The notes below the pieces were generated by a model, which did no database searches, had not been told where the DNA came from, and saw nothing but the letters and a program-made list of their open reading frames with translations. Positions 20,936 to 62,658 of a stretch of DNA of 64,000 bases are shown in pieces. The position numbers were made by a program, and so were the translations under genes. The number at the start of each line of letters is the position of its first letter. Within the stretch, counting starts at the first letter, position 1. The DNA comes from Eledone cirrhosa (lineage: Eukaryota): contig OZ024742.1 in NCBI GenBank assembly GCA_964016885.1, positions 330,088,001-330,152,000 on the forward strand. Direction: 5' to 3'.

Positions 20936-21250
20936 TGGTTTTCATTGACTTTAGGAAGGCCTTTGACTCTGTGGACCGTTACTGCCTGATGAGGATCTTA
21001 CATGCCTATGGAATCCCTAAGAAGATAGTGGACTTGATATCACTGCTCTACACCAACACCAAAGCCCAAGTCATTACCCCTGATGGGATGACAGAGTTCT
21101 TTGAGATACTGGCTGGAGTGCTCCAGGGAGATACATTGGCTCCCTACCTTTTTATCATCATAGTGGACTATTGTATGCGCCTTGCACTGGAGAAACACCA
21201 GGACTCTGGCTTTACTGTAGCACCGGATCAGAGCAGGAGAGTTATGGTGT
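20933..21250 (+). mobile_element. RTE-clade LINE RT fragment
   Basis: VFIDFRKAFDSV, LHAYGIP, GVLQGDTLAPYLFIIIVDY; fused tail-to-tail with the PLE ORF at ~21251. Confidence 0.85.
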
Positions 21251-34369: not shown

Positions 34370-34469
34370 ATAATAATATTAATACTAATACTAATGATTT
34401 CTACAATAGGCACAAGGGGAGAGCGGAGAGTCGATTAATTCTCCACCAGTGTATGACAGGTACTTGAGA

Positions 34470-34635
34470 CCCTTCAAAGACAGCTTCCTGTCAACCCTTA
34501 TCTACCTGGAAGTCTCGTCCGAACCAGACCCCGAGCAACGTTAGCGGTCCATTCGTCCAGTGCACGAATACGCTGTTGGACAGCATGGACTTGCCTCTCC
34601 AGGTGCCGATCTGCAAGTCCACAGACTTTTCCGGA
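34470..34635 (-). mobile_element. Old internal fragment of the Tx1 family
   Basis: Matches the EKSVGLQLGTWRG.SM.SNSV..WT.GP..LLGVWFG.D region (cf. 43150-43360) with substitutions and a deletion. Confidence 0.85.
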
Positions 34636-41295: not shown

Positions 41296-41355
<60 letters not shown>

Positions 41356-41404
41356 CAGCAACAGCATAATGATAATAATAATAACGATAACAATAATAAT
41401 AATA
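41296..41404. repeat. (TAG)n followed by degenerate (AAT)n; left edge of the retroelement stack
   Basis: Directly visible. Confidence 0.9.
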
Positions 41405-41807
41405 GTCCGTTCCAATGGACAAGAATGTATCTATAAAAACATTTGAGAAATTGAACAAGTATAAGGACCTGGAGATAGAAATTGGAAACATGTGTAAATT
41501 GAGAACTAAAACTATACCACTGGTTGTAGGCGCTCTAGGAATGATACCTAAGGCGTCTAATGATTACTTATTGCAAATCCCAGGAGACCCGCGTATAGGA
41601 GAAATACAAAAGTTAGTACTAATGGAAACTGCCCATATACTAAGGAAGATTCTGTCAATATAAGTACATCACAAGTCTAAACACCTAAAGATGCATGTGT
41701 GAGTATGTATGTTCTTTCTTGAACATGGCGGATCTTGTTGTCTCCTGAGGTCACTGGTTGTGACTTGGTGATAACTCGTATGAACATAAAGCAAGGTAAA
41801 TACAGCT

Positions 41808-41808
<1 letters not shown>
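41405..41808 (+). mobile_element. R4/Dong-like non-LTR element, 3' fragment (REL endonuclease C-terminus + 3' UTR)
   Basis: D.NVSIK..EKLNKYKDLEIEI...IPLVVGALG...IQKLVL..TAHILRK; ends in (TAA)n; 3' UTR ctgaggtcactggttgtgacttg resembles 50397-50420. Confidence 0.8.
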
Positions 41809-41850
<42 letters not shown>

Positions 41851-42091
41851 TGTCTTTATTAACCACAAGGGTTTACATAAAGTAGACATTAAGGACAGTG
41901 CAGGGCAATACAGGACGGTACAAATGGGCATTTCTGCGTGTAAAAAAACAGAGGATGTAATAATATAACAAAGAAAAATTCCCCAATAGGGGGGAGACTT
42001 CCTAGGGACATTTGTGGAGAAATCCCATTAAAAGACCACAGTGAAAATGACCACCGGGGCAAGTGCCCTCTCCCAGTTTTCCACCTTTAAT

Positions 42092-45000
42092 TTACAGACA
42101 CATACTCAGAGAAGGCCCAATCATTCGGGCCATACTTGCTTCTCTCACCCATCTTTCAACAAAATGCTGGGAAGAGAGCACTTCCCTCTCTTCCCTGATT
42201 TTCCTTTTCAAATGAAATTTGAAAAAGTTAATCAGGGCATCACCGAAGAGGTAAGTGCTCGTCTTCAGCCCTTTCAAACGTGTCCACCATACTATCTCTT
42301 TCGCCATGGCCACCAGACAGATAAAAACTTCCTGCTCTTCCCGGCTAAAGGAAGAGGGCGGGGCAATCCTCACGATGGACTCAGTTGATAGCCGGATCCG
42401 TCCTACACGTGACAGCAGGTGTTCGACATAAACCCACAAGTCAGCAATGCTCGGACACTGGACGAGTGCGTGCAGGACGGTTTCGTCGCCCTGTGTGCAC
42501 CTCGGACATGCCCGGCTGACGGCACCTCCATGCTTGTAGAGTTTATCCCGAACTGGCAAAGCTCCCCGGTAGCACTGCCAGGCCAGGGATTTCTGGAAGT
42601 TGTCCATAAGCCCCGGCCCGAAAGTCCTTCCGAAGAGATTGGCTAGTTGATTTTCGTCGACGCCTAGAGTTTCTCCAAGTACGTTGTCGCTCTTCCCCTC
42701 CACGAATCCCCTATAGAACGCCAAGGTGGAGTTTCCACCGATCACATTGCCCGATTGGTCGAGGGCTGTGAGCGCCTGACGACATTCCAGTCTCCATGCG
42801 CTCCCTCTCGGTCTTCGCTTGACCCAGGACTGCAGCTCCGTCAAGGAGACGAGCTGGGGGGAAAAACGTGTCTAGCAAACGGCGACCACACCTTATCACC
42901 GTCGAGGAAGAGTAGTAGATGTCGTAGCCTGAGCGCGTGTCTGCGCATCATCAGCCACGGCACGCCCAGCCCTCCACGTAGCGGGTGTTGACAGCAGATG
43001 GACCGCCTGACCATCGGAGCGCGTCCCTTCCACAAGAAGCGAAAGAGCAAACGCTCCAGCGCAGTCAGGCGGGGCTTAGGACAAGGTACGACGGTCAGGC
43101 GGTAGTAGATGACGGACGCGATGTACGCGTTAGCCACCTCCGCTCGACCTTTCAGGGATAGCTTCCTCTCGGCCCATTTCTGGGTGAGAGAAGCCACCCT
43201 GCTCGTCACCTCGTCCCAGTTTTTGTCCGTCTGGAGGTCTGGACCGAACCAGACCCCAAGCAATTTAACCGGTCCGTCCGTCCAGCGCGCGACGACGCTG
43301 TTGGACGGCATGGACCTGCCTCTCCAGGTGCCGAGCTGCAGGCCCACTGACTTTTCCTGGTTGATCATTGCTCCTGTCACCGCTTCGTATACTCTTAGTG
43401 TAGTGCTGATCGCCTCGATGTGTTTGGCGTTCGACACCACTACGGTGACATCGTCCGCATATTCTGACACGGATCTTCCGCGTCATAGTTCGCGCGGCAC
43501 CCCCTCAACGTCTCCAGTTTGTGCAGCAATGGCTCGAGAATCAATACGTACAATAGGGACGAGAGGGGACATACTTGGCGGACCGAGCGCATGATGTTGA
43601 ACGATTCCGAAAGGTGACCGTTCACTCTCACTACAGATCAGATGTCGCTGTGCATGGCAGCGATCCAGCCTCTGAAGACGGGCCCAAAGCCAGCCGCCCT
43701 CAGGACTGCCGCTAGGTAACGATGGTCGACCCTATCGAAGGCTTTCGACTGATCTAAATTGATCAAAGACCCACACGTGCCAGGTTCCCTAGCTACCCTC
43801 TCTACGATGTATCGCATGAGGTGGATATTGTCGTGGATGGATCTGTCGGGAATGGCGCGTGTCTGTGCCTCTCCCACCAGACCACCAACGACATGCGCCA
43901 ACCTCTTTGCTAGCACCTTGGCCAAAATCTTGATCTCTGTGTTTAGCAGAGTTATGGGCCTAAAATTATCTATGTTATCCCACTTGTTCGAATCCTTTCT
44001 CAGCAGCTCCACCGCCCCTCGGCTCACAGAGCTGGGAACTCTCCCGTGTTGTTGCCAGTTGCAGTATACGTCCGCCAAGAGGCCTCCGAACAAGTCTGGC
44101 ATTTGTACGTAAAGTTCATAGGGCAGACCATCCAAACCAGGCGATTTACCCCTTGTGCAGCCAGTCATTACCTCCCGCACTTCAGCGTTTGTTATCGGCT
44201 TTTCGCAACACTCCGCCTCAGTGGCCGAAAGCCGCGGCAGTCCGTCGAGGTAGACACTAAAGTCCATCCCTCCATCCGGCGCGCCAACGCCCCCGAACAG
44301 TTGAGCGAAGTGTCGCTGAAAAGCTTCACACATTTGCCCGGGATCGAGTAGCATGCGCCCGTCGTGGTCCACCAAAGACCGGATCGTGGCTTTGTTGCCA
44401 CGACGCGCCTCCGCCACTCGGGCCCATTGAACGGCTTTCGTCCCCGCGTGTCTGAGAGCACGCACCCTAGCTCTGACAACGCAGCCTTCGTGCTTTACAT
44501 TGAAGGATTGGTCAAGGGCCAATTTCGCCGCAAGTACGTCGGTCGCGATGCCTTTGCTAAGCGCCTCTTCTAATTTTTTAACTAATTCTCCCTCTGCTCT
44601 ATTTTTCTCTATTGCTAAAGCCTTACTAAACCTAATGGACTCTATTCTAATTGCTCTTTTCAGAGCAAACCACCACTTGTTTGTTGACGATGGCCCCCGT
44701 CAACGCCCGCTTAACTAGTTCGCTAATCCGGTCTCTGTAGGCCTTGCGCGCTGGTAAGGACGCGTTTAGCTTCCAGTAGCCGGGTCCTCGTCTATTAAGC
44801 CTATCTAAGTCAAGCACACAGATCACGAATTTGTGGTCCGTGTAGCTGACTATCTTGAATTGTGGACAGCCTATGCTAGACCTATCTATTTCCCTACAAA
44901 ATACTCTATCTAGATATGATCTGGATGACCCTATGCGATTTGTCCAAGTCCACATTGGTACGTTCGGGAAATCCATTCGGTACCTGTCAAACAGTTCAAA

Positions 45001-45514
45001 ACGCCTGAGCACGTTGTGGAGACTCTTGAACCCTCCTTCCCTATCCACTAATCCCACACAATCCCAGCGTGCATCTAAGATCCCGTTCCAGTCGCCCACT
45101 AACACTAAAGAGCGGGACATTTCCAAGAAAGGTCTCCAGACGCCGGAAGAAATCAGGCCGCCCTGCTCCTGTCGGGGCATAGACGGCCACTAGCCTGAAA
45201 GCTTGCCCGTCTCCACTGGTCACGTCTAGCACCACCAACTTACCTTCTGGGTCCAGGAAGATGGCCCGTATGGCGAGATCCAAACCTTTCCGCAAAAGCA
45301 CAGCGACTGCTTCCCCCGATCCCGGACGGCTGGGAAATGGGTACAAATCTTAGCCGCCGAAGATCGGTGCGAAGGCCCTTGTTTCGGAGATTCTGGTCAC
45401 GCTGATTTCCACTACATCTATGTTTAGTGACCTGAGGTCGTTGAGCAGGTGACCTTGCTTCCATGACGACCCCAAGACACGCGCATTTATGCTGCCTATT
45501 CTGAGTGAGGTCAT
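42092..45514 (-). pseudogene. Copy A ORF2 (APE endonuclease-RT-zinc finger), multiple frameshifts
   Basis: Pieces 44647-45180, 43638-44522, 42841-43470 and 42092-42844 align to copy B/C ORF2 (GDWN, YTDH, KSPGLDG, YADD, CPRC..H..C). Confidence 0.92.
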
Positions 45515-45552
45515 GTTGAAATGGGGTGTAAAAGATGGGAAAGACCACTTAC
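45501..45552 (-). other. Candidate 52-nt intron spanning the ORF1 stop and ORF2 start (copy A)
   Basis: AG|GTAAGT donor overlaps the TAA stop; pyrimidine-rich interior; CTCAG| acceptor in ORF2 codon 5; splicing would give GTA-AGA-ATA in frame. Confidence 0.35.
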
Positions 45553-47502
45553 CTTACTTCTCGTAGAGGAAGAATGGTTTGTCCATCCTTTTCACTGCTT
45601 GTGGCCTCCTCTGGAAGGATGTCTTTATAAATCCTCCTGGAGAGTGTTTGTCGGAAGTCTCCGATGTCTTTGGAGAATTTTTGTTTTAGTGTCGTGTACG
45701 TTTTCTGTGTGATGCGAGTGATTTGTATGTGTGGAGGTGGTGTGAACTTTTGGGTTGTTGTGTAGTCTTTTTCTGTGATGCTGGTGTTGTGTTGCATGTA
45801 GTGTAATAATTGATTGTTGTTCAAATTTAATGCTGTATGGTGTGTATCGTTTTGGTTGTTTTGTATTGTTTGCGTTTGTTGTGGGTTTGTTTCTGTTATG
45901 CTTTTTGGTGTTGTTTGTGGTGTTGGTGATGGTTGTGTTGGAGTTAATGTTGGTGATTGTGTTGGTGTTTGTGGTGATGGGGTTCGTGATGCTGGTGTGG
46001 ATGGTGGCATATCTGTCTTAACTTTCTTGTTCGATAATTTATTTGTTTCCCTCTGTATTTTGTTTTTTGAGGGGGAAGGAAGAGATTTTTTTTCTTTTTT
46101 GGTTTCTTTTTTCCTGATACCGTTTCCCATTCCTCGTCGTCATAATCTGTCTCCAGTTGCTATAAGCCGGGGAGTGGAAAATCCTCCACAGGCGTTGGTT
46201 TTTGTTGTGGCGTGGTGGATGGTGTAGGCGCTGGTGCTAGTTCTGTGGCGTTGGGTGGTGGTGGTGTTGGTTTTGCTACTGTTGCTGGGGTTGTAGCTGT
46301 TACAGTTGCTACTGTTGTTGCTGCCACAGTTGTTGCGGCTTTTTCTGCTGCTGGTGGTGTTGATGGTTGAGTCATTCGGGTGGGTAAGAGAGGTGTCCTC
46401 AACCTTTTAGTCTGAGGGCAGAAAGCCCTTAGGTGGGTTCCTTCACCACAAACGACACACCTAGGTCTTCTGCCCTCGACGATTACGGTGAGGTGGTTGC
46501 CGTCAGTGAGGTCTATTACTCCTGGGATCTCCTCAATGCTTTTATGGTCCGCTTGGATCAGGAGCTCCATCCCAGATCCGGACCAGTTCTCCTGCTTTTC
46601 TTTTGCTATTTCTATTATTTTGTTGTTGGCCTCGATGCCGGTGAGGACGGCAGTCATTAGCCAGGGAATTTCGATGGCCGGTGGAACGTGGGTCACTCTG
46701 ATCTTCACAAGTCTCTGGCCACAATAGCTTGGGATGAGTGTGAAGTCGTCACTTCTTAATGGGGCCATGTAGTGTTCTCTGGCCTCCTGTGGTGTTTCAA
46801 AGAACACGTCCACGGTTCCATACTTCTACCCACGTCTGATGTGGGTTTTTTTTGCCCACACATGTCCCAAAGCTTTTGGGATTTGGGACTCAGATGCCCG
46901 TTCTACTCGGCGCGATTTTATGTTTATTGTCCGATGAGACACGGTGCATAGGCGACGTTGCTCCATTTTTTTAGGGTAGGGGGTGGGGTGAGACTGACCC
47001 TGTACCCATCTTTCTTTACCATTCCTTTGGCTTCGTCTAATTCTTCCTGAGATACCTGTATCGCTTCGCACGTTTTTGCTACTCTGGCAAAACTCAGGGT
47101 AGTTTTCTTAATTTCATTGTTGCTGTTGTTATTATCGTTATTTTTGCTATTGTTAATTTTAGTTTCAGTTGTGGTGGTGGTGGCGTCAGTGGTGTTCGGT
47201 CTGGAAGAGTTCATTTTGGTTGAATTCATTTCGATATCATGAGTTAATTTATTTTTTTCTTTTGTTTCTGTTGTCGCTCTGGTGGTGGTGGGGGTGGGGG
47301 TTGTCGCGGTGGTGGTGGTGGTGGTCGCGGCTTTAACACCTGCAGTCATTGGTAATGGCGGGAAATGAACGTCTGCCTGAGACAAATTAAAAATATTGCT
47401 ACTGCTTACAATTCCAGTGTTGGCAAACATAGCAATGTTTACAATGGTGATGTCGGTGTGAGGTGTTGGATTGTGAGGAAGGAGTGAATCTGTGTCATCC
47501 AT
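45549..47502 (-). pseudogene. Copy A ORF1 (gag-like), frameshifted
   Basis: LSFARVAK..EEL.EAK.MV.K.G, DVFFETPQEA, PSYCGQ, CVVCGEGTHLRAFC knuckle, T/P-rich linker, KF..DIGDFR. Confidence 0.85.
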
Positions 47503-47770
47503 TATTTTTCAAAGAAAACAATTTTTGCTTGATAATTATAAAAATTTTACATTTTGGGCTCAAGGCCCCAATATTTTTGACTGTCCTTTTCAGAAATCAA
47601 TGTATGTGCACTTATATATAGTTAACAATAAAAATTTTCCATAAATGGCAATTTTAAATAACTGAAAATAACAAACCTTTGCGGAGCTCACGATGATACG
47701 ATTTACTACGTAGGTCGCCAATAATAATAATAATAATAATAATATTAATAATAATAATAATAATAATAAT

Positions 47771-48154
47771 GCTTTCTTTATTAACCACAAGGATTTACAT
47801 AAAGTAGACATCAAGGACAGTACAGGACAATACAGGACGGTACAAATGGGCATTTCTGCGTGTAAAAAAACAGCGGATGTAATAAAAAATAACAATGACA
47901 ACATTCCCCAATAGGGGGAGACTTCCGAGGGACATTTGTGGAGAAAGCCCATTAAAAGACCACAGTGACCACGACCACTAGGGCAAGTGCCCTCTCCAAG
48001 TTTTTGACCTTTAATTTACAGACACATACTTAGAATCATACTTGCTTCTCTCACCCATCTTTCAACAAAATGCCGGGAAGAGAGCACTTCCCTCTCTACC
48101 CTGATTTTCCTTTTCAAATGAAATATGAAAAAGTTAATCAGGGCATCACCGAAG
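47771..48154 (-). mobile_element. Tx1 copy D, 5'-truncated 3' end
   Basis: Matches 41849-42250 (3' UTR and last ORF2 codons); (AAT)n on both sides. Confidence 0.92.
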
Positions 48155-48176
48155 ATAATAATAATAATAATAATAA

Positions 48177-50473
48177 AATGACCAGGCAGTGTGGATTGAG
48201 ACAGTACAAAAGAAGATTAGTGAACAGGCACACCAAACTGATTTGAGTATCACAGTTGAAACTCTTAAGGGGCAGCCCCAAAAAACTACCCAACTGGAAA
48301 TCCCCAGACCCAGATGGTGTTCAGGGGTATTGGATTAAAAATATAACATCCCTCCACCCGAAACTGACAACCATGTTCAATGACTGCTTAATGTCATGTG
48401 AGGTACCTGACTTGTTGACAAAAGATACCACTGTTCTGGTAATGAAAGACCGAATCAAGAGTAATGATGTTACCAACTATAGACCTATCACATGTCTGTC
48501 CGAAATGTGGAAACTGTTGAATCGCATTATGTCTGAGAAATTCTACCATCACCTCCACACAAACAACTTGTTATCGGACGAACAGAAAGGATGCACAAAG
48601 AAGTCCCGTGGTACAAAGGACCAGTTACTTATTGATAAGATGGTAATGAGGAATTGGAAGAGGAGACACACTGGTCTTGCCATGGAATGGATAGACTACA
48701 AAAAGGCATGTGACATGGTGCCTCATTCTTCAATGTGGCAGATAACATCAGACAGTTGTTGGGCAATGTATGAACTCCTGGAAAACAGAGCTAACATCAG
48801 CTGGTGAATCCTTGTGAGGCGTGAAGATCAAGAGAGGTATCTTCCAGGGAGATAGTATGTCCCCTCTTTTGTTTGTCCTTGCCCTGATGCCCCTGACCAT
48901 TATACTACGAAAAGTGAGAGCAGGATACAAGTTGGGAAAGTGAGACCTTACCATCAATCATCTCATCTTCATGGACGATCTTAAGCTCTTCGGGAAGAGT
49001 GAGAAGGAGTTGGATGTGCTTGTTGACACTGTCCGTATTTTCAGTAATGATATAGGTATGCAATTTGGTATTAGTAAGTGTGGAGTCCTTGTGATGCAGA
49101 GGGGTAAATTAGGCAGAAGCAACGGAATCCAGGTACCAACATGTGAGATGATAAAGGAAATTGACACTGAAGAAGGATACAATTATTTGGGTGTTCTGGA
49201 GGCGGATGACATCAAGAATTAAAAAAATGAAGGAATTCATAAGATCTGAATACATTCGGAGAATAAGGAGCGTATTAAAGTCACATCGGAACAGTAGGAA
49301 TGCCATAAGTGCAGTAAATTCCCGAGCTGTGTATGTTATTAGGTACAGTGCGGGAATTCTAAGATGGAATGTTGCTGAACAAAAATGTATGTATAGGAAG
49401 ACTAGGAAGCTATTGACTAGCTACAACATGTTCCACAAGAGGAGTGATGTCGATAGACTTTACTTAAGGAGGACTGAATGTGGAAGAGGTATTATCAGCA
49501 AGAGGACTGATGGAGAAAAACAACCTACACAAATACGTGACTGATAGTAAGGAGCCAATGCTCAGAACTGTACTGAAGGAGGGGACAATAGGCCAGGGGA
49601 TGTCCAAGGAGGAAATAACATCAAGGAGAAAGAGCAGCCTTCAGGAAAAATCCTTTCATAGTACCTTCTTTGAGAAAACTGAATTTAGAGATCCACAGAC
49701 ATGGAACTGGTTGAAAAGAGGAGACCTTAAAAAGGCTACAGAAGGAATGTTAATGGCTGCGCCAGAGCATTCCCTCAAAACGAAGTGGTTGAAACACAAT
49801 ATTTACAAGAAGGAGGCTAGCCCACTGTGCAGGATCTGTGGGTAGAGAGAGGAGAATGTGGCTCACATTGTATCCGAGTGTAAACACCTAGCCCAGACCC
49901 ACTATAAGGGCTGGAGACATGATGTGATGGGCAGGGTGATCCACTGGCACCTATGCAAAGTAAACAATTTACCACATTCTGAGAAATGGTATGAGCATAA
50001 GCCAGAGTCGGTGATAGAAAACAATCAGGTGAAGGTGCTGTGGGATTTTAGGATACAGACGGACAAGAAACTGGACGACAATAGACCTGACCTGGTCGTT
50101 TTGGACAAGGGAAACAGATCGCGCCCGATTGTGGATGTGGCCTGCCCATTCGACACGAGAGTGCAAGAGAAGGAGAGGGAGAAAATTAACCGATACCAGG
50201 CCTTAAAGTGGGAGGTAAAAAGGATTTGGAACTGCCATGAAGTCAAAGTGGTCCCACTTGTCATAGGCGCACTAGGTACTATCTCAAAAAGTTTCCAGGT
50301 ATGGTTAAAGAAAATTGGCCCCGCCACGCTTTTTGGAACGCTTCAAAAGGCATGCTTGCTGGGAACAGCAAGAACCCTCCGATTCGTCCTGAATATCTGA
50401 GGCTACAGGTAGTGGCTTGATATTCTTTTCAACAAACTTTCCTGTTAACTAACATCAATGACTGAGATTCAAG

Positions 50474-50474
<1 letters not shown>
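48177..50474 (+). mobile_element. R4/Dong-like non-LTR element (RT + CCHC + restriction-like endonuclease), 5'-truncated and degraded
   Basis: NWKSP.PDG, NYRPITCL, IDYKKA.DMVPH, RGIFQGDS.SPLLF, HLIFMDDLKL, YLG, CRICG..HIVSEC, RHD, RPDLVVLDK..IVDVACP.D..KE.EK..Y..L; (TAA)n on both sides. Confidence 0.9.
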
Positions 50475-50533
<59 letters not shown>

Positions 50534-50792
50534 TTTCTTTATTAACCACAAGGGTTTACATAAAGTAGACATTAAGGACAGTGCAGGACAATGCAGGACG
50601 GTACAAATGGGCATTTCTGCGTGTAAAAAACAAAAACAGAGGATGTAACAAAAATAACAATGAAAATAACAATGAAAAATTCCCCAATAGGGGGGAGACT
50701 TCGGAGGGACATTTGTGGAGAAAGCCCAGTAAAAAGCCACAATGACCCTGACCACCAAGGCAAGTGCCCTCTCCCAGTTTTCCACCTTTAGA

Positions 50793-53700
50793 TTACAGAT
50801 ATATACTCAGAGTCGGCCCATTCACTCGGGCCATTCTTGCTTCTCTCACCCATCTTTCAACAAAATGCTGGGAAGAGAGCACTTCCCTCTCTACTCTGAT
50901 TTTCCTTTTCAAATGAAATTTGAAAAAGTCAATCAGAGCATCACCGAAGAGGTAACTGCTCGTCTTCAGCCCTTTCAAACGTGTCCACCATACTATCTCT
51001 CTCGCCATGGCCACCAGACAGATAAAAACTGCCTGCCCTTCCCGGCTAAAGGAGGAGGGCGGGGCAATCCTCACGATAGACTCAGATGATAGCTGGATCC
51101 GTCCTAAACGCGACAGCAGGTGTTCGACATAAACCCACAAGTCAGCAATTTTCGGACACTGGACGAGTGCGTGCAGGACGGTTTCGTCGCCCTGCGCGCA
51201 TCTCGGACATGCCCGGCTGACGGCACCTCCATGCCTGTAGAGTTTATCCCGAACTGGCAAGGCTCCTCGGTAGCACTGCCAGGCCAGAGATTTCTGGAAG
51301 TTGTCCATAGGCCCTGGCCCGAAAGTTCTTCCGAAGAGATTGGCTAGTTGATTTTCGTCGACGCCTAGAGTTTCCCCAAGTACGTCGTCGCTCTTCCCCT
51401 CCACTAATTCTCTATAGAACGCCGAGGTGGAGTTTCCACCGATCACATTGCCCGATTGGTCGAGGGCTGTGAGCGCCTGAAGACATTCCAGTCTCCAGGC
51501 GCTCCCTCTCGGTCTTCGCTTGACCCAGGACTGCAGCTCCGTCAAGGAAACGAGCTGGGGAAAAACGCGTCTAGCAAACGGCGACCACACCTGATCACCG
51601 TCGAGGAAGAGGTGGAGATGTCGTAGCCTGAGCGCGTGCCTGCGCATCATCAGCCACGGCATGCCCAGCCCTCCACGTAGCGGGTGTTGACAACAGATGG
51701 ACCGCCTGACCATCGGAGCACGTCCCTTCCACAAAAAGCGAAAGAGCAAACGCTCCAGCGCAGTCAGGCGAGGCTTAGGACAAGGTACGACGGTTAGGCG
51801 GTAGCAGATGACAGACGCGATGTACGCGTTAGCCACCTCCGCTCGACCTTTCAGGGATAGCTTCCTCTCCGCCCATTTCTGGGTGAGAGAAGCCACCCTG
51901 CTCGTCACCTCGTCCCAGTTTTTGTCCGTCTGGAGGTCCGGACCGAACCAGACCCCTAGCAATTTAACCGGTCCGTCCGTCCAGCGCCCGACGACGCTGT
52001 TGGACGGCATGGACCTGCCTCTCCAGGTGCCGAGCTGCAGGCCCACTGACTTTTCCTGGTTGATCATTGCTCCTGTCACCGCTTCGTATTCTCTTAGTGT
52101 AGTGCCGATCGCCTCGATGTGTTTGGCGTTCGACACCACTACGGTGACATCGTCCGCATATGCTGACACGGATCTTCCGCATCCTAGTTCGCGCGGGACT
52201 CCCCTCAACGTCTCCAGTTTGTGCAGTAATGGCTCGAGAGTCAATACGTACAAGAGGGACGAGAGGGGACATCCTTGGCGGACCGAGCGCATGATGTTGA
52301 ACGGTTCCGACAGGTGACCGTTCACTCTCACTACAGAGCAGATGTCGCTGTGCATGGCAGCGATCCAGCCTCTGAAGACGGGCCCAAAGCCAGCCGCCCT
52401 CAGGACTGCCGCTAGGTAACGATGGTCGACCCTATCGAAAGCTTTCGACTGATCTAAATTGATCAAGGACCCACCCGTGCCAGGTTCCCTAGCTACCCTC
52501 TCTACGATGTATCGCATGAGGTGGAGGTTGTCGTGGATGGATCTGTCGGGAATGGCGCATGTCTGCGCCTCTCCCACCAGACCACCAACGACAAGCGCCA
52601 ACCTCTTTGCTAGCACCTTGGCCAAAATCTTAAACTCTGTGTTTAGCAGAGTTATGGGCCGGAAATTGTCTATGTTATCCCCCTTGTTCGGATCCTTTCT
52701 CAGCAGTGCCACCGCTCCTCGGCTCACAGAACTGGGAATTCTCCCGTTCTGTTGCCAGTTGCAGTAGACGTCCGCCAAGAGGCCTCCGAACAAGTCTGGC
52801 ATCTGTACGTAAAGTTCATAGGGCAGACCATCCAAACCAGGCGATTTACCCCTTGTGCAGCCAGTCATTGCCTCCCGTACTTCAGCGGCTGTTATCGGCT
52901 TTTCGCAACACTTCGCCTCAGTGGCCGAGAGCCGCGGCAGTCCGTCGAGGTAGACACTAAAGTCCATCCCTCTACCCGGCCCCCCGCTGCCCCCGAACAG
53001 CTGAGCGAAGTGTCGCTGAAAAGCTTCACACATTTTCCCGGGATCGAGTAGCATGCGCCCGTCGTGGTCCACCAAAGACCGGATCGTGGCTCTGTTGCCA
53101 CGACGCGCCTCCGCCACTCGGGCCCATTGAACGGCTTTCGTCCCCTCGTGTCTGAGAGCACGCACCCTAGCTCTGACAACGCAGCCTTCGTGCTTTGCAT
53201 TGAAGAATTGGTCAAGGGCCAATTTCGCCGCAAGCACGTCGGTCGCAATGCCTTTGCTAAGCGCCTCGTCTAATTTTCTAACTAGTTCTCCCTCTGCTCT
53301 ATTTTTCTCTATTGCTAAAGCCTTACTAAAGCTAATCGATTCTATTCTAATCGCTCTTTTCAGAGCAAACCACCACTTGTTGTTGACGATGGCCCCCGTC
53401 AACGCCCGCTTAACTAGTTCGCTAATCCGTCTCTGTAGGCCTTGCGCGCTGGTAAGGACGCGTTTAGCTTCCAGTAGCCGGGTCCTCGTCTATGAAGCCT
53501 ATCTAAGTCAAGCACACAGGTCACGAATTTGTGGTCCGTGTAGCTGACTATCTTGAATTGTGGACAGCCTATGCTAGACCTATCTATTTCCCTACAAAAT
53601 ACTCTATCTAGATATGATCTGGATGACCCTATGCGGTTTGTCCAAGTCCACATTGGCACATTCGGGAAATCCAATCGGTACCTGTCAGACAGTTCAAAAC

Positions 53701-54211
53701 GCCTGAGCAGGTTGGTGAGGCTCTTGCACCCTCCACCCCTATCCGCTAATCCCACACAGTCCCAGCGTGCATCTAAGATGCCGTTCCAGTCGCCCACTAA
53801 CACTAAAGAGCGGGACGTTCCAAGAAAGGTCTCCAGACGCCGGAAGAAATCAGGCCGCCCTGCTCCTGTCGGGGCATAGACGGCCACTAGCCTGAAAGCT
53901 TGCCCGTCTCCGCTGGTCACGTCCAGCACCACCAGCTTACCCTCTGGGTCCAGGAAGATGGCCCGTATGGCGAGATCCAAACCTCTCCGAAAAAGCACAG
54001 CAACTCCTCCACCCGATCCAGGACGGCTGGGAGATGCGTACACATCGTAGCCGCCGAAGATCGGTGCGAAGGCCCGTGCTTCGGAGATTCTGGTCTCGCT
54101 GATGGCCACTACATCTATGTTTAGTGACCTGAGGTCGTTGAGCAGGTGACCCTGCTTCCATGACGACCCCAAGCCACGCGCATTTATGCTGCCTATTCTG
54201 AGTGAGGTCAT
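50793..54211 (-). CDS. Copy B ORF2 APE-RT-zf with a single frameshift near 53428
   Basis: 265 aa EN part (GSINARG, SETR, GDWN, YLDR, YTDH) plus 869 aa RT part (QGCPLS, YADD, CPRCAQGDETVLHALVQC); lacks one G present in copies A and C (aatccg vs aatccgg). Confidence 0.9.
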
Positions 54212-54250
54212 GTTTAAAATAGAGTGGAAAAGATGGGAAAGACCACTTAC
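54198..54250 (-). other. Candidate 53-nt intron spanning the ORF1 stop and ORF2 start (copy B)
   Basis: CG|GTAAGT...CTCAG|A, which would give an in-frame CGA codon. Confidence 0.35.
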
Positions 54251-56344
54251 CGTACTTTTGGTAGAGGAGGGGTGGTTTTTACTTCCCTTTTCACTTGATC
54301 GTCTGGTGAAGGGACCGTTGAATCGTCCCTTCGGCTGGTCGTCGGCTCTTCTAAGAGAATGTCTGAATATACTCTTCGATTGATGGTTCCTCCTAGGTCC
54401 CTGAAATCACCAACTGCGTTGGGGAATTTCGTTTTAATGTTTGTGTATTGTTTCTGTGCTATTTTTAGCAGTCTTATGTTAGTTGGCGTTTTGATTGGTG
54501 CTGGTATTATGTAGTCCTGTTGTGAAATGTCTGTGTGTTCAATTATGTAAGTCATTAGTTTCTTGTTGTGTGTGTTTATTGCCGTGCATTTGTTTTTCTG
54601 GGGGTGGGGTGTGGTTCTGCTATTTTCTTGTCGTTGTTGCTGGGTGTGTGTGTTTTGTTGTTGTGTTTGCGATGTTGGTGCTTGTGGTGGTGGTGTTGAA
54701 GGTGTTGTTGGCGGTGGGGTTGTCGCCGGTGGTGATGGTGGTGCTGGTGTGGGTGGTGATGGTGTTGGTGGTGTTGCTGCTGTGGGTCTCTTTGCAGTAG
54801 ACTTTACCCTTTTCTCATTTCTTTCCTCCCTTTTCAAAGGCGACGATGCGCTGCTTCTGCGTTTGTGCCTTCTTGCGACCTTTTGCCATCCCTCTCCCAC
54901 CTCACACTCCATGTCTGATTCTGTGAGGTCGGGGAGGGGTACCAGCTCCACTCTTTCACTTGTTGTTGTTGGTGATGTTTGCACTGGAGTCTCTGTTGCA
55001 GCTGCATTTGGTATTGCTGTTGTTGTTGTTAATATTTCCACTGCTGCTGCTGTTTTTGATTTCCGTGGCGTGGGTATGGGTGCCACGGACCTATCGTTCC
55101 TGGTTGCCGCTTGTCCTGTTGCTGGTAGCCGTGGAGCCGGATTCGGAAGGAGGGGGGTTTTCTCCTTCCTCAGGGTCTTCTCGTTGCAGAAGGCCCTGAG
55201 GTGAGTCTTCGATCCACAGCGAAAGCATTTCGGGCGTTTGCCCTCAACACTTATGGGCAGTTGAGTGCCGTTATCGAAGTCTATCACATCCGGGATAGCT
55301 TCGATGCACTCCTGGTTGGTTTGGATTAGCATCTCAATGGAGGAGCCGACCCAATCTTCTCTTACTTTTTTCTGTACTTGCAGTACAGTTGTTTTGTCCT
55401 CGATTCCGACGAGGACAGACGCGGCCAGCCAAGAAGGGGTCATTCCGGGGGGGACGTGGGTCAGTTTGACCCTCACAATTTTTTGCCCGCAGTAGGAGGG
55501 CACCAACACCATTTCCTCGCTCCTTAGGGTCACTACTGATTGGGCCTTTGCCTCCTGGGGTGTGGCAAAAAGTACGTCTACGGTGGCATATTTTTTGCCT
55601 CGGGTGATGTGCGTTTTCTCGCTGCCACACAGACCCCAAGGCTTTTTGTATTTGGGCCTCTGTGGCTCTTTCCACCCTACGGGATTTTGTACTTACTGTA
55701 CGGTACGTGACCGTACAGTGCTCTTGGGTCTCGAAAAACTTTTCCGCTGCCTTGCAGATTGCTCGGTGTCCGTTCTTTGTCACCATCTTCTTCGCTTCCT
55801 CTAATTCCTCATTTGTTATGAGGATTGTTTCCAAGTTTTTCGCAATACCTGCAAATGAGATTGGTTTTTCTCTGCTGTTGTTGTTGTCGTCAGAGCTGCT
55901 GGTACTTTTGTTGTTGCTGCAGGTACTACGACTACTGCCTCCGCCGCTGTTGCTGTGGTTGTTGTTGGTGTTGCTGCTGCTAATGCTGTTGTTGTTTATG
56001 TTGCTGGTGATGCTGTTGCAGCTGCTACTGTTGTTTTCATTGTCACTGTTGCTGTTGTTATTACGGCTGCTACTGCTATTATTCCTGACGTCAGACGAAT
56101 GAACTGGGTTTTCGTATTTCCCGCACACCTGTTTCGTCGCTGTCGTCGTCGTCGTGGAGAAACTTTGCACGCTTTGCACGAGACTTTTCTTTTCTTTCGT
56201 CACTTGCGAAAGAGAAGGGAGGGAGAGAGACACATTTAAAGAAGGGAGGGAGAGAGACAATCTTCTCTCTGCTGTAGTGATGATTGAGGAAGAAGAAGAC
56301 GGAATGAGTGGGAGTGACGTATGAAATTTCTTTTTTGTAGCCAT
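54247..56344 (-). CDS. Copy B ORF1 with a single frameshift near 55619
   Basis: ORFs 55334-56344 and 54247-55533 join to match the 694 aa ORF1 of copy C; CFRCGSKTHLRAFC. Confidence 0.88.
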
Positions 56345-56559
56345 GTTGTTTTTTGTTTAAAATGAAATTTTGGGTACAAAACCCCAATAACTGGTTATTT
56401 AACCCCGAAGGGCCAAATAACGGACAGAAAGACCCCTCTCACGAGGAGGAGGGTGTCTTTATCAACAATTTGGTTCAAGTTTTAAACAATTTACAATTGT
56501 TTTAACGGTTAAAAATTACTATACCTTACAGAGCCGAGCCTCCGTCAACCATGGCATTC

Positions 56560-56600
<41 letters not shown>

Positions 56601-56861
56601 TTTCTTTATTAACCACAAGGGTTTACATAAAGTAGACATTAAGGACAGTGCAGGACAATGCAGGACGGTACAAATGGGCATTTCTGCGTGTAAAAAAAAC
56701 AAAAACAGAGGATGTAACAAAAATAACAATGAAAATAACAATGAAAAATTCCCCAATAGGGGGGAGACTTCGGAGGGACATTTGTGGAGAAAGCCCAGTA
56801 AAAAGCCACAATGACCCTGACCACCAAGGCAAGTGCCCTCTCCCAGTTTTCCACCTTTAGT

Positions 56862-59800
56862 TTACAGATATATACTCAGAGTCGGCCCATTCACTCGGGC
56901 CATTCTTGCTTCTCTCACCCATCTTTCAACAAAATGCTGGGAAGAGAGCACTTCCTTCTCTACTCTGATTTTCCTTTTCAAATGAAATTTGAAAAAGTCA
57001 ATCAGAGCATCACCGAAGAGGTAAGTGCTCGTCTTCAGCCCTTTCAAACGTGTCCACCATACTATCTCTTTCGCCATGGCCACCAGACAGATAAAAACTG
57101 CCTGCCCTTCCCGGCTAAATGAGGAGGGCGGGGCAATCCTCACGATAGACTCAGATGATAGCTGGATCCGTCCTAAACGCGACAGCAGGTGTTCGACATA
57201 AACCCACAAGTCAGCAATTTTCGGACACTGGACGAGTGCGTGCAGGACGGTTTCGTCGCCCTGCGCGCATCTCGGACATGCCCGGCTGACGGCACCTCCA
57301 TGCCTGTAGAGTTTATCCCGAACTGGCAAGGCTCCTCGGTAGCACTGCCAGGCCAGAGATTTCTGGAAGTTGTCCATAGGCCCTGGCCCGAAAGTTCTTC
57401 CGAAGAGATTGGCTAGTTGATTTTCGTCGACGCCTAGAGTTTCCCCAAGTACGTCGTCGCTCTTCCCTTCCACTAATCCTCTATAGAACGCCGAGGTGGA
57501 GTTTCCACCGATCACATTGCCCGATTGGTCGAGGGCTGTGAGCGCCTGAAGACATTCCAGTCTCCAGGCGCTCCCTCTCGGTCTTCGCTTGACCCAGGAC
57601 TGCAGCTCCGTCAAGGAAACGAGCTGGGGAAAAACGCGTCTAGCAAACGGCGACCACACCTGATCACCGTCGAGGAAGAGGTGGAGATGTCGTAGCCTGA
57701 GCGCGTGCCTGCGCATCATCAGCCACGGCATGCCCAGCCCTCCACGTAGCGGGTGTTGACAACAGATGGACCGCCTGACCATCGGAGCACGTCCCTTCCA
57801 CAAAAAGCGAAAGAGCAAACGCTCCAGCGCAGTCAGGCGAGGCTTAGGACAAGGTACGACGGTTAGGCGGTAGCAGATGACAGACGCGATGTACGCGTTA
57901 GCCACCTCCGCTCGACCTTTCAGGGATAGCTTCCTCTCCGCCCATTTCTGGGTGAGAGAAGCCACCCTGCTCGTCACCTCGTCCCAGTTTTTGTCCGTCT
58001 GGAGGTCCGGACCGAACCAGACCCCTAGCAATTTAACCGGTCCGTCCGTCCAGCGCCCGACGACGCTGTTGGACGGCATGGACCTGCCTCTCCAGGTGCC
58101 GAGCTGCAGGCCCACTGACTTTTCCTGGTTGATCATTGCTCCTGTCACCGCTTCGTATTCTCTTAGTGTAGTGCCGATCGCCTCGATGTGTTTGGCGTTC
58201 GACACCACTACGGTGACATCGTCCGCATATGCTGACACGGATCTTCCGCATCCTAGTTCGCGCGGGACTCCCCTCAACGTCTCCAGTTTGTGCAGTAATG
58301 GCTCGAGAGTCAATACGTACAAGAGGGACGAGAGGGGACATCCTTGGCGGACCGAGCGCATGATGTTGAACGGTTCCGACAGGTGACCGTTCACTCTCAC
58401 CACAGAGCAGATGTCGCTGTGCATGGCAGCGATCCAGCCTCTGAAGACGGGCCCAAAGCCAGCCGCCCTCAGGACTGCCGCTAGGTAACGATGGTCGACC
58501 CTATCGAAAGCTTTCGACTGATCTAAATTGATCAAGGACCCACCCGTGCCAGGTTCCCTAGCTACCCTCTCTACGATGTATCGCATGAGGTGGAGGTTGT
58601 CGTGGATGGATCTGTCGGGAATGGCGCATGTCTGCGCCTCTCCCACCAGACCACCAACGACAAGCGCCAACCTCTTTGCTAGCACCTTGGCCAAAATCTT
58701 AAACTCTGTGTTTAGCAGAGTTATGGGCCGGAAATTGTCTATGTTATCCCCCTTGTTCGGATCCTTTCTCAGCAGTGCCACCGCTCCTCGGCTCACAGAA
58801 CTGGGAATTCTCCCGTTCTGTTGCCAGTTGCAGTAGACGTCCGCCAAGAGGCCTCCGAACAAGTCTGGCATCTGTACGTAAAGTTCATAGGGCAGACCAT
58901 CCAAACCAGGCGATTTACCCCTTGTGCAGCCAGTCATTGCCTCCCGTACTTCAGCGGCTGTTATCGGCTTTTCGCAACACCTCGCCTCAGTGGCCGAGAG
59001 CCGCGGCAGCCCGTCGAGGTAGACACTAAAGTCCATCCCTCTACCCGGCCCCCCGCTGCCCCCGAACAGCTGAGCGAAGTGTCGCTGAAAAGCTTCACAC
59101 ATTTGCCCGGGATCGAGTAGCATGCGCCCGTCGTGGTCCACCAAAGACCGGATCGTGGCTTTGTTGCCACGACGCGCCTCCGCCACTCGGGCCCATTGAA
59201 CGGCTTTCGTCCCCTCGTGTCTGAGAGCACGCACCCTAGCTCTGACAACGCAGCCTTCGTGCTTTGCATTGAAGAATTGGTCAAGGGCCAATTTCGCCGC
59301 AAGCACGTCGGTCGCAATGCCTTTGCTAAGCGCCTCGTCTAATTTTCTAACTAGTTCTCCCTCTGCTCTATTTTTCTCTATTGCTAAAGCCTTACTAAAC
59401 CTAATCGATTCTATTCTAATCGCTCTTTTCAGAGCAAACCACCACTTGTTGTTGACGATGGCCCCCGTCAACGCCCGCTTAACTAGTTCGCTAATCCGGT
59501 CTCTGTAGGCCTTGCGCGCTGGTAAGGACGTTTAGCTTCCAGTAGCCGGGTCCTCGTCTATGAAGCCTATCTAAGTCAAGCACACAGGTCACGAATTTGT
59601 GGTCCGTGTAGCTGACTATCTTGAATTGTGGACAGCCTATGCTAGACCTATCTATTTCCCTACAAAATACTCTATCTAGATATGATCTGGATGACCCTAT
59701 GCGGTTTGTCCAAGTCCACATTGGCACATTCGGGAAATCCAATCGGTACCTGTCAGACAGTTCAAAACGCCTGAGCAGGTTGGTGAGGCTCTTGCACCCT

Positions 59801-60279
59801 CCACCCCTATCCGCTAATCCCACACAGTCCCAGCGTGCATCTAAGATCCCGTTCCAGTCGCCCACTAACACTAAAGAGCGGGACGTTCCAAGAAAGGTCT
59901 CCAGACGCCGGAAGAAATCAGGCCGCCCTGCTCCTGTCGGGGCATAGACGGCCACTAGCCTGAAAGATTGCCCGTCTCCGCTGGTCACGTCCAGCACCAC
60001 CAGCTTACCCTCTGGGTCCAGGAAGATGGCCCGTATGGCGAGATCCAAACCTCTCCGAAAAAGTACAGCAACTCCTCCACCGGATCCAGGACGGCTGGGA
60101 GATGCGTACACATCGTAGCCGCCGAAGATCGGTGCGAAGGCCCGTGCTTCGGAGATTCTGGTCTCGCTGATGGCCACTACATCTATGTTTAGTGACCTGA
60201 GGTCGTTGAGCAGGTGACCCTGCTTCCATGACGACCCCAAGCCACGCGCATTTATGCTGCCTATTCTGAGTGAGGTCAT
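56862..60279 (-). CDS. Copy C ORF2 APE-RT-zf with a frameshift near 59530
   Basis: 262 aa + 869 aa pieces; ggacgtttag versus ggacgcgtttag in copies A and B. Confidence 0.9.
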
Positions 60280-60318
60280 GTTTAAAATAGAGTGGAAAAG
60301 ATGGGAAAGACCACTTAC
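60266..60318 (-). other. Candidate 53-nt intron spanning the ORF1 stop and ORF2 start (copy C)
   Basis: Same CG|GTAAGT...CTCAG|A arrangement as copy B. Confidence 0.35.
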
Positions 60319-62399
60319 CGTATTTTTGGTAGAGGAGGGATGGTTTTTACATCCCTTTTCACTTGATCGTCTGGTGAAGGGACCGTTGAATCGTCCCTTC
60401 GGCTGGTCGTCGGCTCTTCTAAGAGAATGTCTGAATATACTCTTCGATTAATGGTTCCTCCTAGGTCCCTGAAATCACCAACTGCGTTGGGGAATTTCGT
60501 TTTAATGTTTGTGTATTGTTTCTGTGCTATTTTTAGCAGTCTTATGTTAGTTGGCGTTTTGATTGGTGCTGGTATTATGTAGTCCTGTTGTGAAATGTCT
60601 GTGTGTTCAATTATGTAAGTCATTAGTTTCTTGTTGTGTGTGTTTATTGCCGTGCATTTGTTTTTCTGGGGGTGGGGTGTGGTTCTGCTATTTTCTTGTC
60701 GCTGTTGCTGGGTGTGTGTGTTTTGTTGTTGTGTTTGCGATGTTGGTGCTTGTGGTGTTGAAGGTGTTGTTGGCGGTGGGGTTGTCGCCGGTGGTGATGG
60801 TGGTGCTGGTGTGGGTGGTGATGGTGTTGGTGGTGTTGCTGCTGTGGGTCTCTTTGCAGTAGACTTTACCCTTTTCTCATTTCTTTCCTCCCTTTTCAAA
60901 GGCGACGATGCGCTGCTTCTGCGTTTGTGCCTTCTTGAGACCTTTTGCCATCCCTCTCCCACCTCACACTCCATGTCTGATTCTGTAAGGTCGGGGAGGG
61001 GTACCAGCTCCACTCTTTCACTTGTTGTTGTTGGTGATGTTTGCACTGGAGTCTCTGTTGCAGCTGCATTTGGTATTGCTGTTGTTGTTGTTAATATTTC
61101 CACTGCTGCTGCTGTCTTTGATTTCCGTGGAGTGGGTATGGGTGCCACGGACCTATCGTTCCTGGTTGCCGCTTGTCCTGTTGCTGGTAGCCGTGGAACC
61201 GGATTCGGGAGGAGGGGGGTTTTCTCCTTTCTCAGGGTCTTCTCGTTGCAGAAGGCCCTGAGGTGAGTCTTCGATCCACAGCGAAAGCATTTCGGGCGTT
61301 TGCCCTCAACACTTATGGGCAGTTGAGTGCCGTTATCGAAGTCTATCACATCCGGGATAGCTTCGATGCACTCCTGGTTGGTTTGGATTAGCATCTCAAT
61401 GGAGGAGCCGACCCAATCTTCTCTTACTTTTTTCTGTACTTGCAGTACAGTTGTTTTGTCCTCGATTCCGACGAGGACAGACGCGGCCAGCCAAGAAGGG
61501 GTCATTCCGGGGGGGACGTGGGTCAGTTTGACCCTCACAATTTTTTGCCCACAGTAGGAGGGCACCAACACCATTTCCTCGCTCCTTAGGGTCACTACTG
61601 ATTGGGCCTTTGCCTCCTGGGGTGTGGCAAAAAGTACGTCTACGGTGGCATATTTTTTGCCTCGGGTGATGTGCGTTTTCCGCTGCCACACAGACCCCAA
61701 GGCTTTTTGTATTTGGGCCTCTGTGGCTCTTTCCACCCTACGGGATTTTGTACTTACTGTACGGTACGTGACCGTACAGTGCTCTTGGGTTTCGAAAAAA
61801 TTTTTCGCTGCCTTGCAGATTGCTCGGTGTCCGTTCTTTGTCACCATCTTCTTCGCTTCCTCTAATTCCTCATTTGTTATGAGGATTGTTTCCAAGTTTT
61901 TCGCAATACCTGCAAATGAGATTGGTTTTTCTCTGCTGTTGTTGTCGTCAGAGCTGCTGGTACTTTTGTTGTTGCTGCAGGTACTACGACTACTGCCTCC
62001 GCCGCTGTTGCTGTGGTTGTTGTTGGTGTTGCTGCTGCTAATGCTGTTGTTGTTTATGCTGCTGGTGATGCTGTTGCGGCTGCTACTGTTGTTTTCATTG
62101 TCACTGTTGCTGTTGTTATTACGGCTGCTACTGCTATTATTCCTGACGTCAGACGAATGAACTGGGTTTTCGTATTTCCCGCACACCTGTTTCGTCGCTG
62201 TCGTCGTCGTGGAGAAACCTTGCACGCTTTGCACGAGACTTTTCTTTTCTTTCGTCACTTGCGAAAGAGAAGGGAGGGAGAGAGACACATTTAAAGAAGG
62301 GAGGGAGAGAGACAATCTTCTCTCTGCTGTAGTGATGATTGAGGAAGAAGAAGACGGAATGAGTGGGAGTGACGTATGAAATTTCTTTTTCGTAGCCAT
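60315..62399 (-). CDS. Tx1 ORF1 nucleic-acid-binding protein, 694 aa
   Basis: Uninterrupted ORF; S/N-rich N-terminus, globular middle, CX2CX4HX4C knuckle, P/T-rich linker, basic patch, C-terminal domain shared with copy A. Confidence 0.9.
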   Translation of the reverse strand: MATKKKFHTSLPLIPSSSSSIITTAERRLSLSLPSLNVSLSLPSLSQVTKEKKSLVQSVQGFSTTTTATKQVCGKYENPVHSSDVRNNSSSSRNNNSNSDNENNSSSRNSITSSINNNSISSSNTNNNHSNSGGGSSRSTCSNNKSTSSSDDNNSREKPISFAGIAKNLETILITNEELEEAKKMVTKNGHRAICKAAKNFFETQEHCTVTYRTVSTKSRRVERATEAQIQKALGSVWQRKTHITRGKKYATVDVLFATPQEAKAQSVVTLRSEEMVLVPSYCGQKIVRVKLTHVPPGMTPSWLAASVLVGIEDKTTVLQVQKKVREDWVGSSIEMLIQTNQECIEAIPDVIDFDNGTQLPISVEGKRPKCFRCGSKTHLRAFCNEKTLRKEKTPLLPNPVPRLPATGQAATRNDRSVAPIPTPRKSKTAAAVEILTTTTAIPNAAATETPVQTSPTTTSERVELVPLPDLTESDMECEVGEGWQKVSRRHKRRSSASSPLKREERNEKRVKSTAKRPTAATPPTPSPPTPAPPSPPATTPPPTTPSTPQAPTSQTQQQNTHTQQQRQENSRTTPHPQKNKCTAINTHNKKLMTYIIEHTDISQQDYIIPAPIKTPTNIRLLKIAQKQYTNIKTKFPNAVGDFRDLGGTINRRVYSDILLEEPTTSRRDDSTVPSPDDQVKRDVKTIPPLPKIR

Positions 62400-62614
62400 G
62401 TTGTTTTTTGTTTAAAATGAAATTTTGGGTACAAAACCCCAATAACTGGTTATTTAACCCCGAAGGGCCAAATAACAGACAGAAAGACCCCTCTCACGAG
62501 GAGGAGGGTGTCTTTATCAACAATTTGGTTCAAGTTTTAAACAATTTACAATTGTTTTAACGGTTAAAAATTACTATACCTTACAGAGCCGAGCCTCCGT
62601 CAACCATGGCATTC

Positions 62615-62658
<44 letters not shown>
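62615..62658. repeat. (AAT)n spacer, one of seven (41367-41404, 41809-41848, 47720-47770, 48155-48176, 50475-50531, 56560-56598, 62615-62658)
   Basis: Directly visible at every element junction in the stack. Confidence 0.95.

Follow-up and report, generated by a model that had tools for sequence, protein, structure and literature searches.

How did long interspersed nuclear elements (LINEs) with two unrelated kinds of endonuclease come to stand end to end inside a single AAT microsatellite? The question is raised by a stretch of 64,000 nucleotides from Eledone cirrhosa (G000:C3:330,088,001-330,152,000, part of a 3.0-Gb animal assembly), which we call the window. A preliminary description of this DNA gave six consecutive units joined by AAT-type runs with no unique DNA between them, and we confirm these coordinates, with junction runs of 22 to 57 bp. 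Its end had been placed at 62,658, but the array goes on: the DNA that follows is the 5' untranslated region (UTR) of a further full-length element (S7), and then comes S8, so the full array has eight units (S1 to S8) over about 26.4 kb and extends past the window end. We conclude that it very probably records eight separate LINE insertions into one AAT microsatellite, made by L1/Tx1-like elements with an apurinic/apyrimidinic endonuclease (APE) and by two Dong/R4-like families with a restriction-like endonuclease (RLE), which lie in opposed directions, probably because their enzymes first nick opposite strands, and which probably restored the repeats each time. There is nothing special about the site: its stack is a typical instance of a pattern seen across the genome.

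The array occupies a compound microsatellite whose left edge is a (TAG)20 run (41296-41355), and its seven AAT-type runs measure, in order, 39, 40, 51, 22, 57, 39 and 44 bp. An imperfect (AAT)n run (41366-41404) forms the left junction, followed on the plus strand by S1 (41405-41808), an older 3' fragment of Dong-like family A (DongA) that holds the end of the RLE open reading frame (ORF) and the 3' UTR and has a best sampled match of 95.8%. A (TAA)13 run (41809-41848) joins this DongA 3' end tail to tail to that of S2 (41849-47719, minus strand), an older full-length Tx1-like element with ORF1 type a and six small indels in ORF2. Beyond an AAT run with a single ATT interruption (47720-47770) lies S3 (47771-48154, minus), a 385-bp Tx1-like 3' fragment 89% identical to S2, and an (ATA)7 run (48155-48176) separates its 5' truncation from that of S4 (48177-50474, plus), a decayed, 5'-truncated copy of Dong-like family B (DongB) that retains a reverse transcriptase (RT) fragment, the CCHC and RLE region and the 3' UTR. 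An (AAT)19 run (50475-50531) leads to S5 (50532-56559, minus), and an (AAT)13 run (56560-56598) joins S5 head to tail to S6 (56599-62614, minus). Both are young full-length Tx1-like elements with ORF1 type b and a single frameshift, near 53,429 in ORF2 of S5 and near 59,530 in S6. The ORF1 frame of S6, with one CCHC knuckle, spans 60315-62411, its APE 59491-60447, and its RT and zf-RVT regions 56862-59531, all on the minus strand.

At the (AAT)14 run that follows (62615-62658), the Tx1 5' end meets a Dong 5' head in head-to-head arrangement. This head belongs to S7 (62659-64000, plus), a full-length DongA whose 5' UTR and ORF start (ATG at 63,763) lie inside the window and which runs on to equivalent position 67,553; its ORF carries one in-frame stop. 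On the 3' side of S7 come an AAT run, S8, and an AAT/GAA run. S8 is a short DongA tail copy (equivalent 67,572-67,770) with a 53-bp 5' inversion, which resembles twin priming, a process usually discussed for L1. All four Tx1-like units are thus minus and both Dong-like units of the originally described span are plus, as had been reported. S1 to S4 are 92-96% identical to their nearest sampled relatives and S5 to S8 about 99% or more, indicating layered growth of the stack. Some 5' junctions of both LINE groups border on (GAA)n runs, as does the right edge of this array.

Behind a CCHC ORF1, S2, S5, and S6 carry APE, RT, and zf-RVT frames (Pfam Exo_endo_phos, RVT_1, and zf-RVT), and APE and RT motifs are present in an intact Tx1-like ORF2 of 1,139 residues. 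Its best relative among solved structures is LINE-1 ORF2p (E 1e-51), and its nearest named protein matches, at 69% and 59%, belong to Argonauta hians, an octopod; the homologues found are unnamed or hypothetical, with no named Tx1 element among them. A separate ORF1 with a zinc knuckle is characteristic of the Tx1 clade. Both ORF1 types seen here hold one CCHC knuckle, and a Pfam search gave no match for ORF1. We assign Tx1- and R4-clade membership from domain anatomy and accordingly use the labels Tx1-like and Dong-like.

The four Tx1-like units, grouped together in the preliminary description, do share a Tx1-like 3' region but are not uniform: S3 is only a 3' fragment, and S2 has just the 3' 3.75 kb in common with S5 and S6 (about 94% identity), so that ORF2 is common to them but ORF1 is not, its ORF1 being 42% identical to theirs at the amino acid level over 233 residues. 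Regions L189 and L225 show that the same AAT target is used, in the same polarity, by four or more Tx1-like 5' halves (a, b, d, and e) and by a second Tx1-like 3'-end type, 73-81% identical. Outside the array, a 127-bp piece at 34,506-34,632 of the window is 84% similar to the Tx1-like ORF2.

The two Dong-like units of the original span are likewise both RLE-type elements on the plus strand, yet they belong to different families. DongA (S1 and S7) and DongB (S4) give no blastn match to each other, and their intact representatives, single ORFs of 1,216 and 1,141 residues, respectively, are 35.6% identical. The Dong-like ORF contains an RT, then CCHC, RHD, and PD..D..K restriction-like endonuclease motifs, and has no APE. 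Solved-structure relatives of the protein are R2 proteins only, and none of its 17 matches is a named R4/Dong reference. Intact ORFs of Tx1-like, DongA, and DongB elements all exist elsewhere in the genome.

The 5' heads of DongA and DongB are alike, with 75% identity over about 330 bp. In the window copy (62,659-62,990) and 22 further heads, about 46 conserved nucleotides precede a GTAAG and a T-rich stretch resembling a splice donor. A hepatitis delta virus (HDV)-like ribozyme has been reported at the 5' end of Bombyx mori Dong and of R4. For the shared head, Rfam gave no ribozyme match at a meaningful score, and the consensus fold of 15 heads was weak and lacked compensatory changes, a pseudoknot being outside the model. 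Some Dong truncation points recur at unlinked loci; the idea that they mark non-autonomous subfamilies was rejected, as the copies are not sisters. A third RLE-type element (L105:300-1400) has a 3' end that runs into (TACA)n, possibly another microsatellite target. One truncated DongB (C1:26,095,601-26,108,000) holds at its 5' junction about 75 bp that were copied, with several template jumps, from its downstream flank.

The same arrangement recurs throughout the genome. Genome-wide counts are of exact sequence patterns, and by exact internal motifs there are at least 6,251 Tx1-like, 7,453 DongB, and 3,689 DongA 3' ends. Read on the AAT strand, the Tx1-like 3' end lies after (AAT)3 7,844 times, compared with 23 matches at 18 sites after (ATT)3. 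The Dong head follows (AAT)3 in 1,601 matches (579 on the reverse strand; some of the forward ones are counted twice) and (ATT)3 in 7 matches at 6 sites. At the other end of the Tx1-like element, (AAT)3 follows the type b 5' end (Tx1b) in 82 of 83 cases among the matches listed. The copies are also clustered. The 252 ends listed for the first 60 Mb of C1 leave 251 gaps between neighbours; 95 of these are below 7 kb, against 7 expected, and polarity agrees in 93 of the 95 pairs less than 7 kb apart versus 51 of 111 pairs beyond 20 kb. On the same contig we mapped three arrays with almost no breaks, one of about 55 kb, one of at least 34 kb, and one of 32 kb.

We examined flanks in a C1 sample of ends chosen on internal motifs rather than on the flanks themselves, taken from 140 of 184 selected stretches and comprising 78 of 100 listed Tx1-like, 38 of 58 DongA, and 73 of 94 DongB ends. 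(AAT)3 adjoins the 3' end in 70/78 Tx1-like, 38/38 DongA, and 70/73 DongB copies. At the 5' end it adjoins 48/48, 5/6, and 11/12 full-length copies and 16/30, 26/32, and 44/61 truncated copies, respectively, so that most copies elsewhere keep a 5' repeat (31/38 for DongA and 55/73 for DongB overall), as the preliminary description had expected. Its claim of non-random orientation is borne out as well. In a matrix of junctions at 307 AAT runs, 460 of the 464 sides occupied by a LINE have the predicted polarity, and 1 of the 189 sampled copies has the opposite polarity. Across the AAT run, 149 of the 189 have a LINE neighbour, which for 94 of the 189 is a member of the other clade. In restriction-site-associated DNA (RAD) reads from another sample, truncated ends also run into (TAA)n (60 and 15 reads; 115 reads).

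These flanks bear on whether the Tx1-like elements choose AAT runs at all. Only Dong might be target-specific, or the AAT runs might be element tails, with Tx1-like copies bringing (ATT)n ends and accumulating passively. The difference between full-length and truncated Tx1-like 5' flanks would fit this idea, as full-length RNAs may bring upstream repeats, and none of 30 host-repeat AAT sites has a Tx1-like copy adjoining its left flank. Truncated Tx1-like copies cannot bring 5' repeats, though, and still (AAT)3 adjoins 16 of 30 of them against a background of 0.3% (16 of 5,000 random 30-mers drawn from window positions 1-41,000). Further, Tx1-like 3' ends lying beside GTA, GAA, or minisatellite DNA carry just one or two AAT units, indicating that no long tail is added. 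The 3' junction reads TAAT in 73 of 78 copies, and there is no poly(A). We therefore consider passive accumulation unlikely and favour insertion by both groups into the AAT run.

Empty and filled versions of the same site show what an insertion does to its target. A repeat that we take to be Penelope-like, from the resemblance of its ORF, contains an internal AAT run; it has 2,175 matches, often occurs as inverted pairs, and supplies landing sites. Among its first 30 AAT sites, 20 are empty (14 by script, with a median run of 33 bp, and 6 by eye), 7 contain a short interspersed nuclear element (SINE) oriented as Tx1, and DongB fills 3 rows, of which two are the sides of one event. One Penelope-like site contains three DongB copies separated and flanked by runs of 54, 54, 45, and 21 bp, 174 bp in total. 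A second host repeat provides comparable empty and filled pairs, and at such paralogous sites the left and right host flanks keep matching across whole arrays. Informative Tx1-like target duplications come from four sites, one of which occurs twice, and measure 7, 7, 11, and 17 bp. Inner AAT runs (n=204) are 36 bp long at the median, and their length does not fall with array size (Spearman rho -0.06 against junction number, p 0.39). Together, these paralogous sites and stable run lengths support the earlier suggestion that insertion regenerates the target. Within the window, Penelope-like remnants lie on the minus strand at 11,967-13,109 and 21,040-23,025, with an RT fragment and weak GIY-YIG matches below the Pfam cut-off.

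The SINE is about 190 bp long and abundant in AAT runs at many C1 loci (e.g., L192:780-971, L242, L254, and L261), with a diverged copy in the window at about 34,395-34,480. Its insertions duplicate about 10-19 bp of the run and add no tail, as judged from the register of an ATT interruption. It is followed by (ATT)3 in 21 of 39 copies and by (ATT)2 in 10, and it is found in AAT polarity in 1. The last 25 bp or so resemble Tx1-like 3' ends by eye. ARAGORN found no tRNA in the SINE; its head is presumably tRNA-like and its core Deu-like. Based on these sequence features, the SINE is a candidate non-autonomous partner of the Tx1-like LINE.

Could local processes instead (tandem duplication, unequal crossing-over, or gene conversion) have built most of the stack? 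Some C1 arrays do contain exact local repeats of 598-1,488 bp that cross element ends and runs. One adjacent Tx1b pair, the only one among 33 aligned copies, is a pair of sisters in the tree (support 0.93), and the 3' ends of one DongB pair have 283 bp in common. In the window array, by contrast, all eight units differ by family, truncation point, or age. Between S5 and S6 there are 38 differences in 6,013 sites, distributed evenly; the two have different frameshifts and are not sisters: S6 is closer to 9 unlinked C1 copies, and S5 to at least 3, than they are to each other. A long 5' duplication between them was considered and rejected, since the identical stretch is 137 bases and is matched by 27% of unlinked pairs. 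The C1 cases have only the 5' block in common, the body of the element being 2.4-5% different from its neighbour. Later recombination may account for those blocks but not for the window array, and we judge local duplication to be a very unlikely origin of the stack, again favouring separate insertions.

The C1 blocks have a pattern of their own: in a few tandem copies, 0.3-1.5 kb matches the 5' end of the neighbour exactly, and the match takes in the run. Among 22 linked Tx1b pairs, 4 (3 events in 2 arrays) have a 5' identity block, and all 4 fall among the 9 pairs that are at least 1.5% diverged. In these pairs 587-1,298 bases at the 5' end are identical, and the identity continues through the AAT run and once into the next Dong fragment. 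In a third array a 910-bp block including a DongA fragment is duplicated around a Tx1-like copy, an ambiguous case. A mirror-image DongA pair shares its truncation point and has its first 285 bases identical, followed by 32 differences in 1,557. Against a strict 5' rule, the 283 shared bases noted above stand at the 3' end, in 1 of 27 DongB pairs, and 3 of 33 Tx1-like 3' pairs reach p<0.01 (short blocks or copies less than 1% apart). No shared block was found in 2 Dong-head, 2 Tx1a, or 7 DongA 3' pairs.

One tentative interpretation, to which we give somewhat less than an even chance, is that AAT arrays act as a recombination bench, where a new copy finishes its 5' end by copying a neighbour and so duplicates up to about 1.5 kb plus a whole run. 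Where a homologous neighbour lies on the primer side, the cDNA end could anneal there, and the intervening DNA would be duplicated; the template would be the left neighbour for Tx1-like and the right neighbour for Dong-like copies, mirroring the nicked strand. Recombination after insertion, with a sister or homolog as the source of the 5' block, would give the same product as cDNA copying and is a live explanation. Bench copying, if real, would regrow the target and swap promoters and ORF1s between families, and would explain both the four Tx1-like 5' halves on one ORF2 and the head common to 36%-identical Dong families.

For the insertions themselves, the probable route is target-primed reverse transcription, in which the first nick falls on the strand that primes the cDNA (PMC2718515; this and the other articles cited here are represented by parts of their text). 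Because the orientations are fixed, this would place the Tx1-like APE nick on the AAT strand and the Dong RLE nick on the ATT strand, and the endonucleases themselves may prefer (AAT)n sequence. Part of the run would then be duplicated through staggered second-strand cleavage, repeat tails may come from Dong, and short runs would grow by slippage. With these three contributions, each event would leave two usable targets, and the stack would grow. As the preliminary description proposed, the two clades appear to have converged on one target.

Several points weigh against this account. The flank sample was drawn from the first 60 Mb of C1 only. Some truncated 5' junctions lack (AAT)3 (14/30 Tx1-like, 6/32 DongA, and 17/61 DongB); some of these misses are mismatches to the reference or later deletions, and others are true off-target insertions, e.g., into a minisatellite or a GTA run. 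Informative Tx1-like duplications are few, the measured duplications of 10-19 bp are those of the SINE, whose link to Tx1 is itself suggested by resemblance, and perfect repeats make tail, target, and duplication indistinguishable. Finally, the array junctions are not spanned by any read, and contigs that contain the unique left flank show 8 mismatches to it in 835 bases and end in the TAG run, giving no allele call.

This last point raises the prospect that the array is an assembly join across repeats, as near-identical 6-kb units connected by microsatellites would invite when no spanning read has been seen. Such a join would not be expected to leave S5 and S6 with their 38 differences and distinct frameshifts, or S1 to S4 with 4-8% divergence from the nearest sampled copies. 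Host flanks on the left and right match across whole arrays at the empty and filled paralogous sites, and the same junction rule is obeyed at hundreds of junctions. We regard an assembly artifact as extremely improbable and retain serial insertion as the explanation of the array.

Two further features lie outside the array. A stop-to-stop frame of 651 amino acids at 1,579-3,534 of the window (plus strand) has no Pfam match. Downstream of the window, at equivalent 76,270-78,600, there is a decayed APE-RT LINE that we take to be RTE-like.

If the main account holds, two unrelated insertion enzymes split one trinucleotide repeat by strand, with thousands of young copies and intact ORFs, and strand choice, target duplication, and second-strand priming become testable from a single genome. 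The account also gives a concrete way for retrotransposon hotspots to arise in octopus-type genomes, and a warning that AAT markers in such genomes can conceal insertions of 30-55 kb. What most deserves to be followed up is the 5'-copying signature; if it holds genome-wide, it is a visible route to promoter and ORF1 swapping in LINE evolution.

Parts of this picture are already known from other systems, namely Dong on TAA, tandem growth via target duplication, and the sharing of a target in opposite polarity. The preliminary description was right to recall that Dong targets TAA: the available text of PMC3812793 gives the TAA microsatellite as the target of Dong, DongAg, and DongBg (R4 clade; DongBg is from the snail Biomphalaria glabrata), and that of PMC3774820 places TAA repeats upstream of the Dong 5' end. 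The elements described here resemble Dong of Bombyx mori in this target, in having repeats at both ends, and in a single ORF with RT, CCHC, and RLE motifs. They differ in that two 36%-identical families share one 5' head and form mixed arrays with an APE element. In cephalopods, Octopus vulgaris has abundant Dong-R4 LINEs with recent activity (PMC13282606), and the portions at hand of papers on octopus repeats report Dong-R4 and L1-Tx1 as abundant or recently active, with no analysis of targets or arrays (PMC13282606, PMC8967140, PMC9115989).

In the Tx1 clade, the known simple-repeat targets are (TC)n for Kibi, (TTC)n for Koshi, and (TTCC/TTTC)n for crocodilian Tx1 (PMC4494074, PMC3812793; partial texts). 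The Tx1-like elements here share with these an APE-RT-zinc-finger ORF2 after a CCHC ORF1, a simple-repeat target, and fixed polarity. They differ in that the sense-strand target is (ATT)n, which is absent from the available text of PMC4494074 and PMC3812793, in their junctions without poly(A), and in the several ORF1s and 5' halves on a shared ORF2. The accessible parts of PMC3747384, PMC4758252, and PMC3124438 contain nothing on an AAT or ATT target. Our literature search found no (ATT)n-targeting Tx1 family and no mixed Dong/Tx1 array, though Repbase, subscription papers, or supplements may hold one.

Drosophila R1 and double-insertion tandems, in which a new copy enters the target duplication of an earlier one, also grow through target duplication (partial texts of PMC2718515 and PMC5932611). 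As described there, they involve a single family with spacers of 14-33 nt; in the arrays here, several Tx1 subfamilies and a SINE accompany two or more Dong families, and some copies have duplicated as much as about 1.5 kb of a neighbour. For the latter, a relevant comparison is the L1 templated insertion, where the cDNA leaves the RNA and copies and duplicates nearby DNA (bioRxiv 10.1101/2024.08.27.596794). In the part of that report available, the templates are mostly less than 250 bp of non-L1 DNA, whereas here it is the neighbour's own 5' end and run that are duplicated.

Unrelated APE and RLE systems are also known to use one repeated target in Keno and Utopia (U2 small nuclear RNA genes) and in R1 and R2 (28S ribosomal DNA), as presented in portions of PMC4494074, PMC4640811, and PMC2718515. 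There the sites are defined positions in RNA genes; here both systems use one trinucleotide run, on opposite strands, and regenerate it. The remaining parallel is the one drawn in the preliminary description. TRAS and SART are kin within the R1 clade. TRAS1 and SART1 insert in opposite directions into (TTAGG)n telomeric repeats (PMC7265360, in part), and the likeness to our array, two elements on one repeat in opposite directions, stands. It does not extend to the enzymes or the setting: TRAS1 and SART1 are both APE elements at telomeres, whereas here an APE element and its RLE partners, with unrelated endonucleases, occupy dispersed interstitial microsatellites, the window array itself sitting at 330 Mb of a 379-Mb contig.

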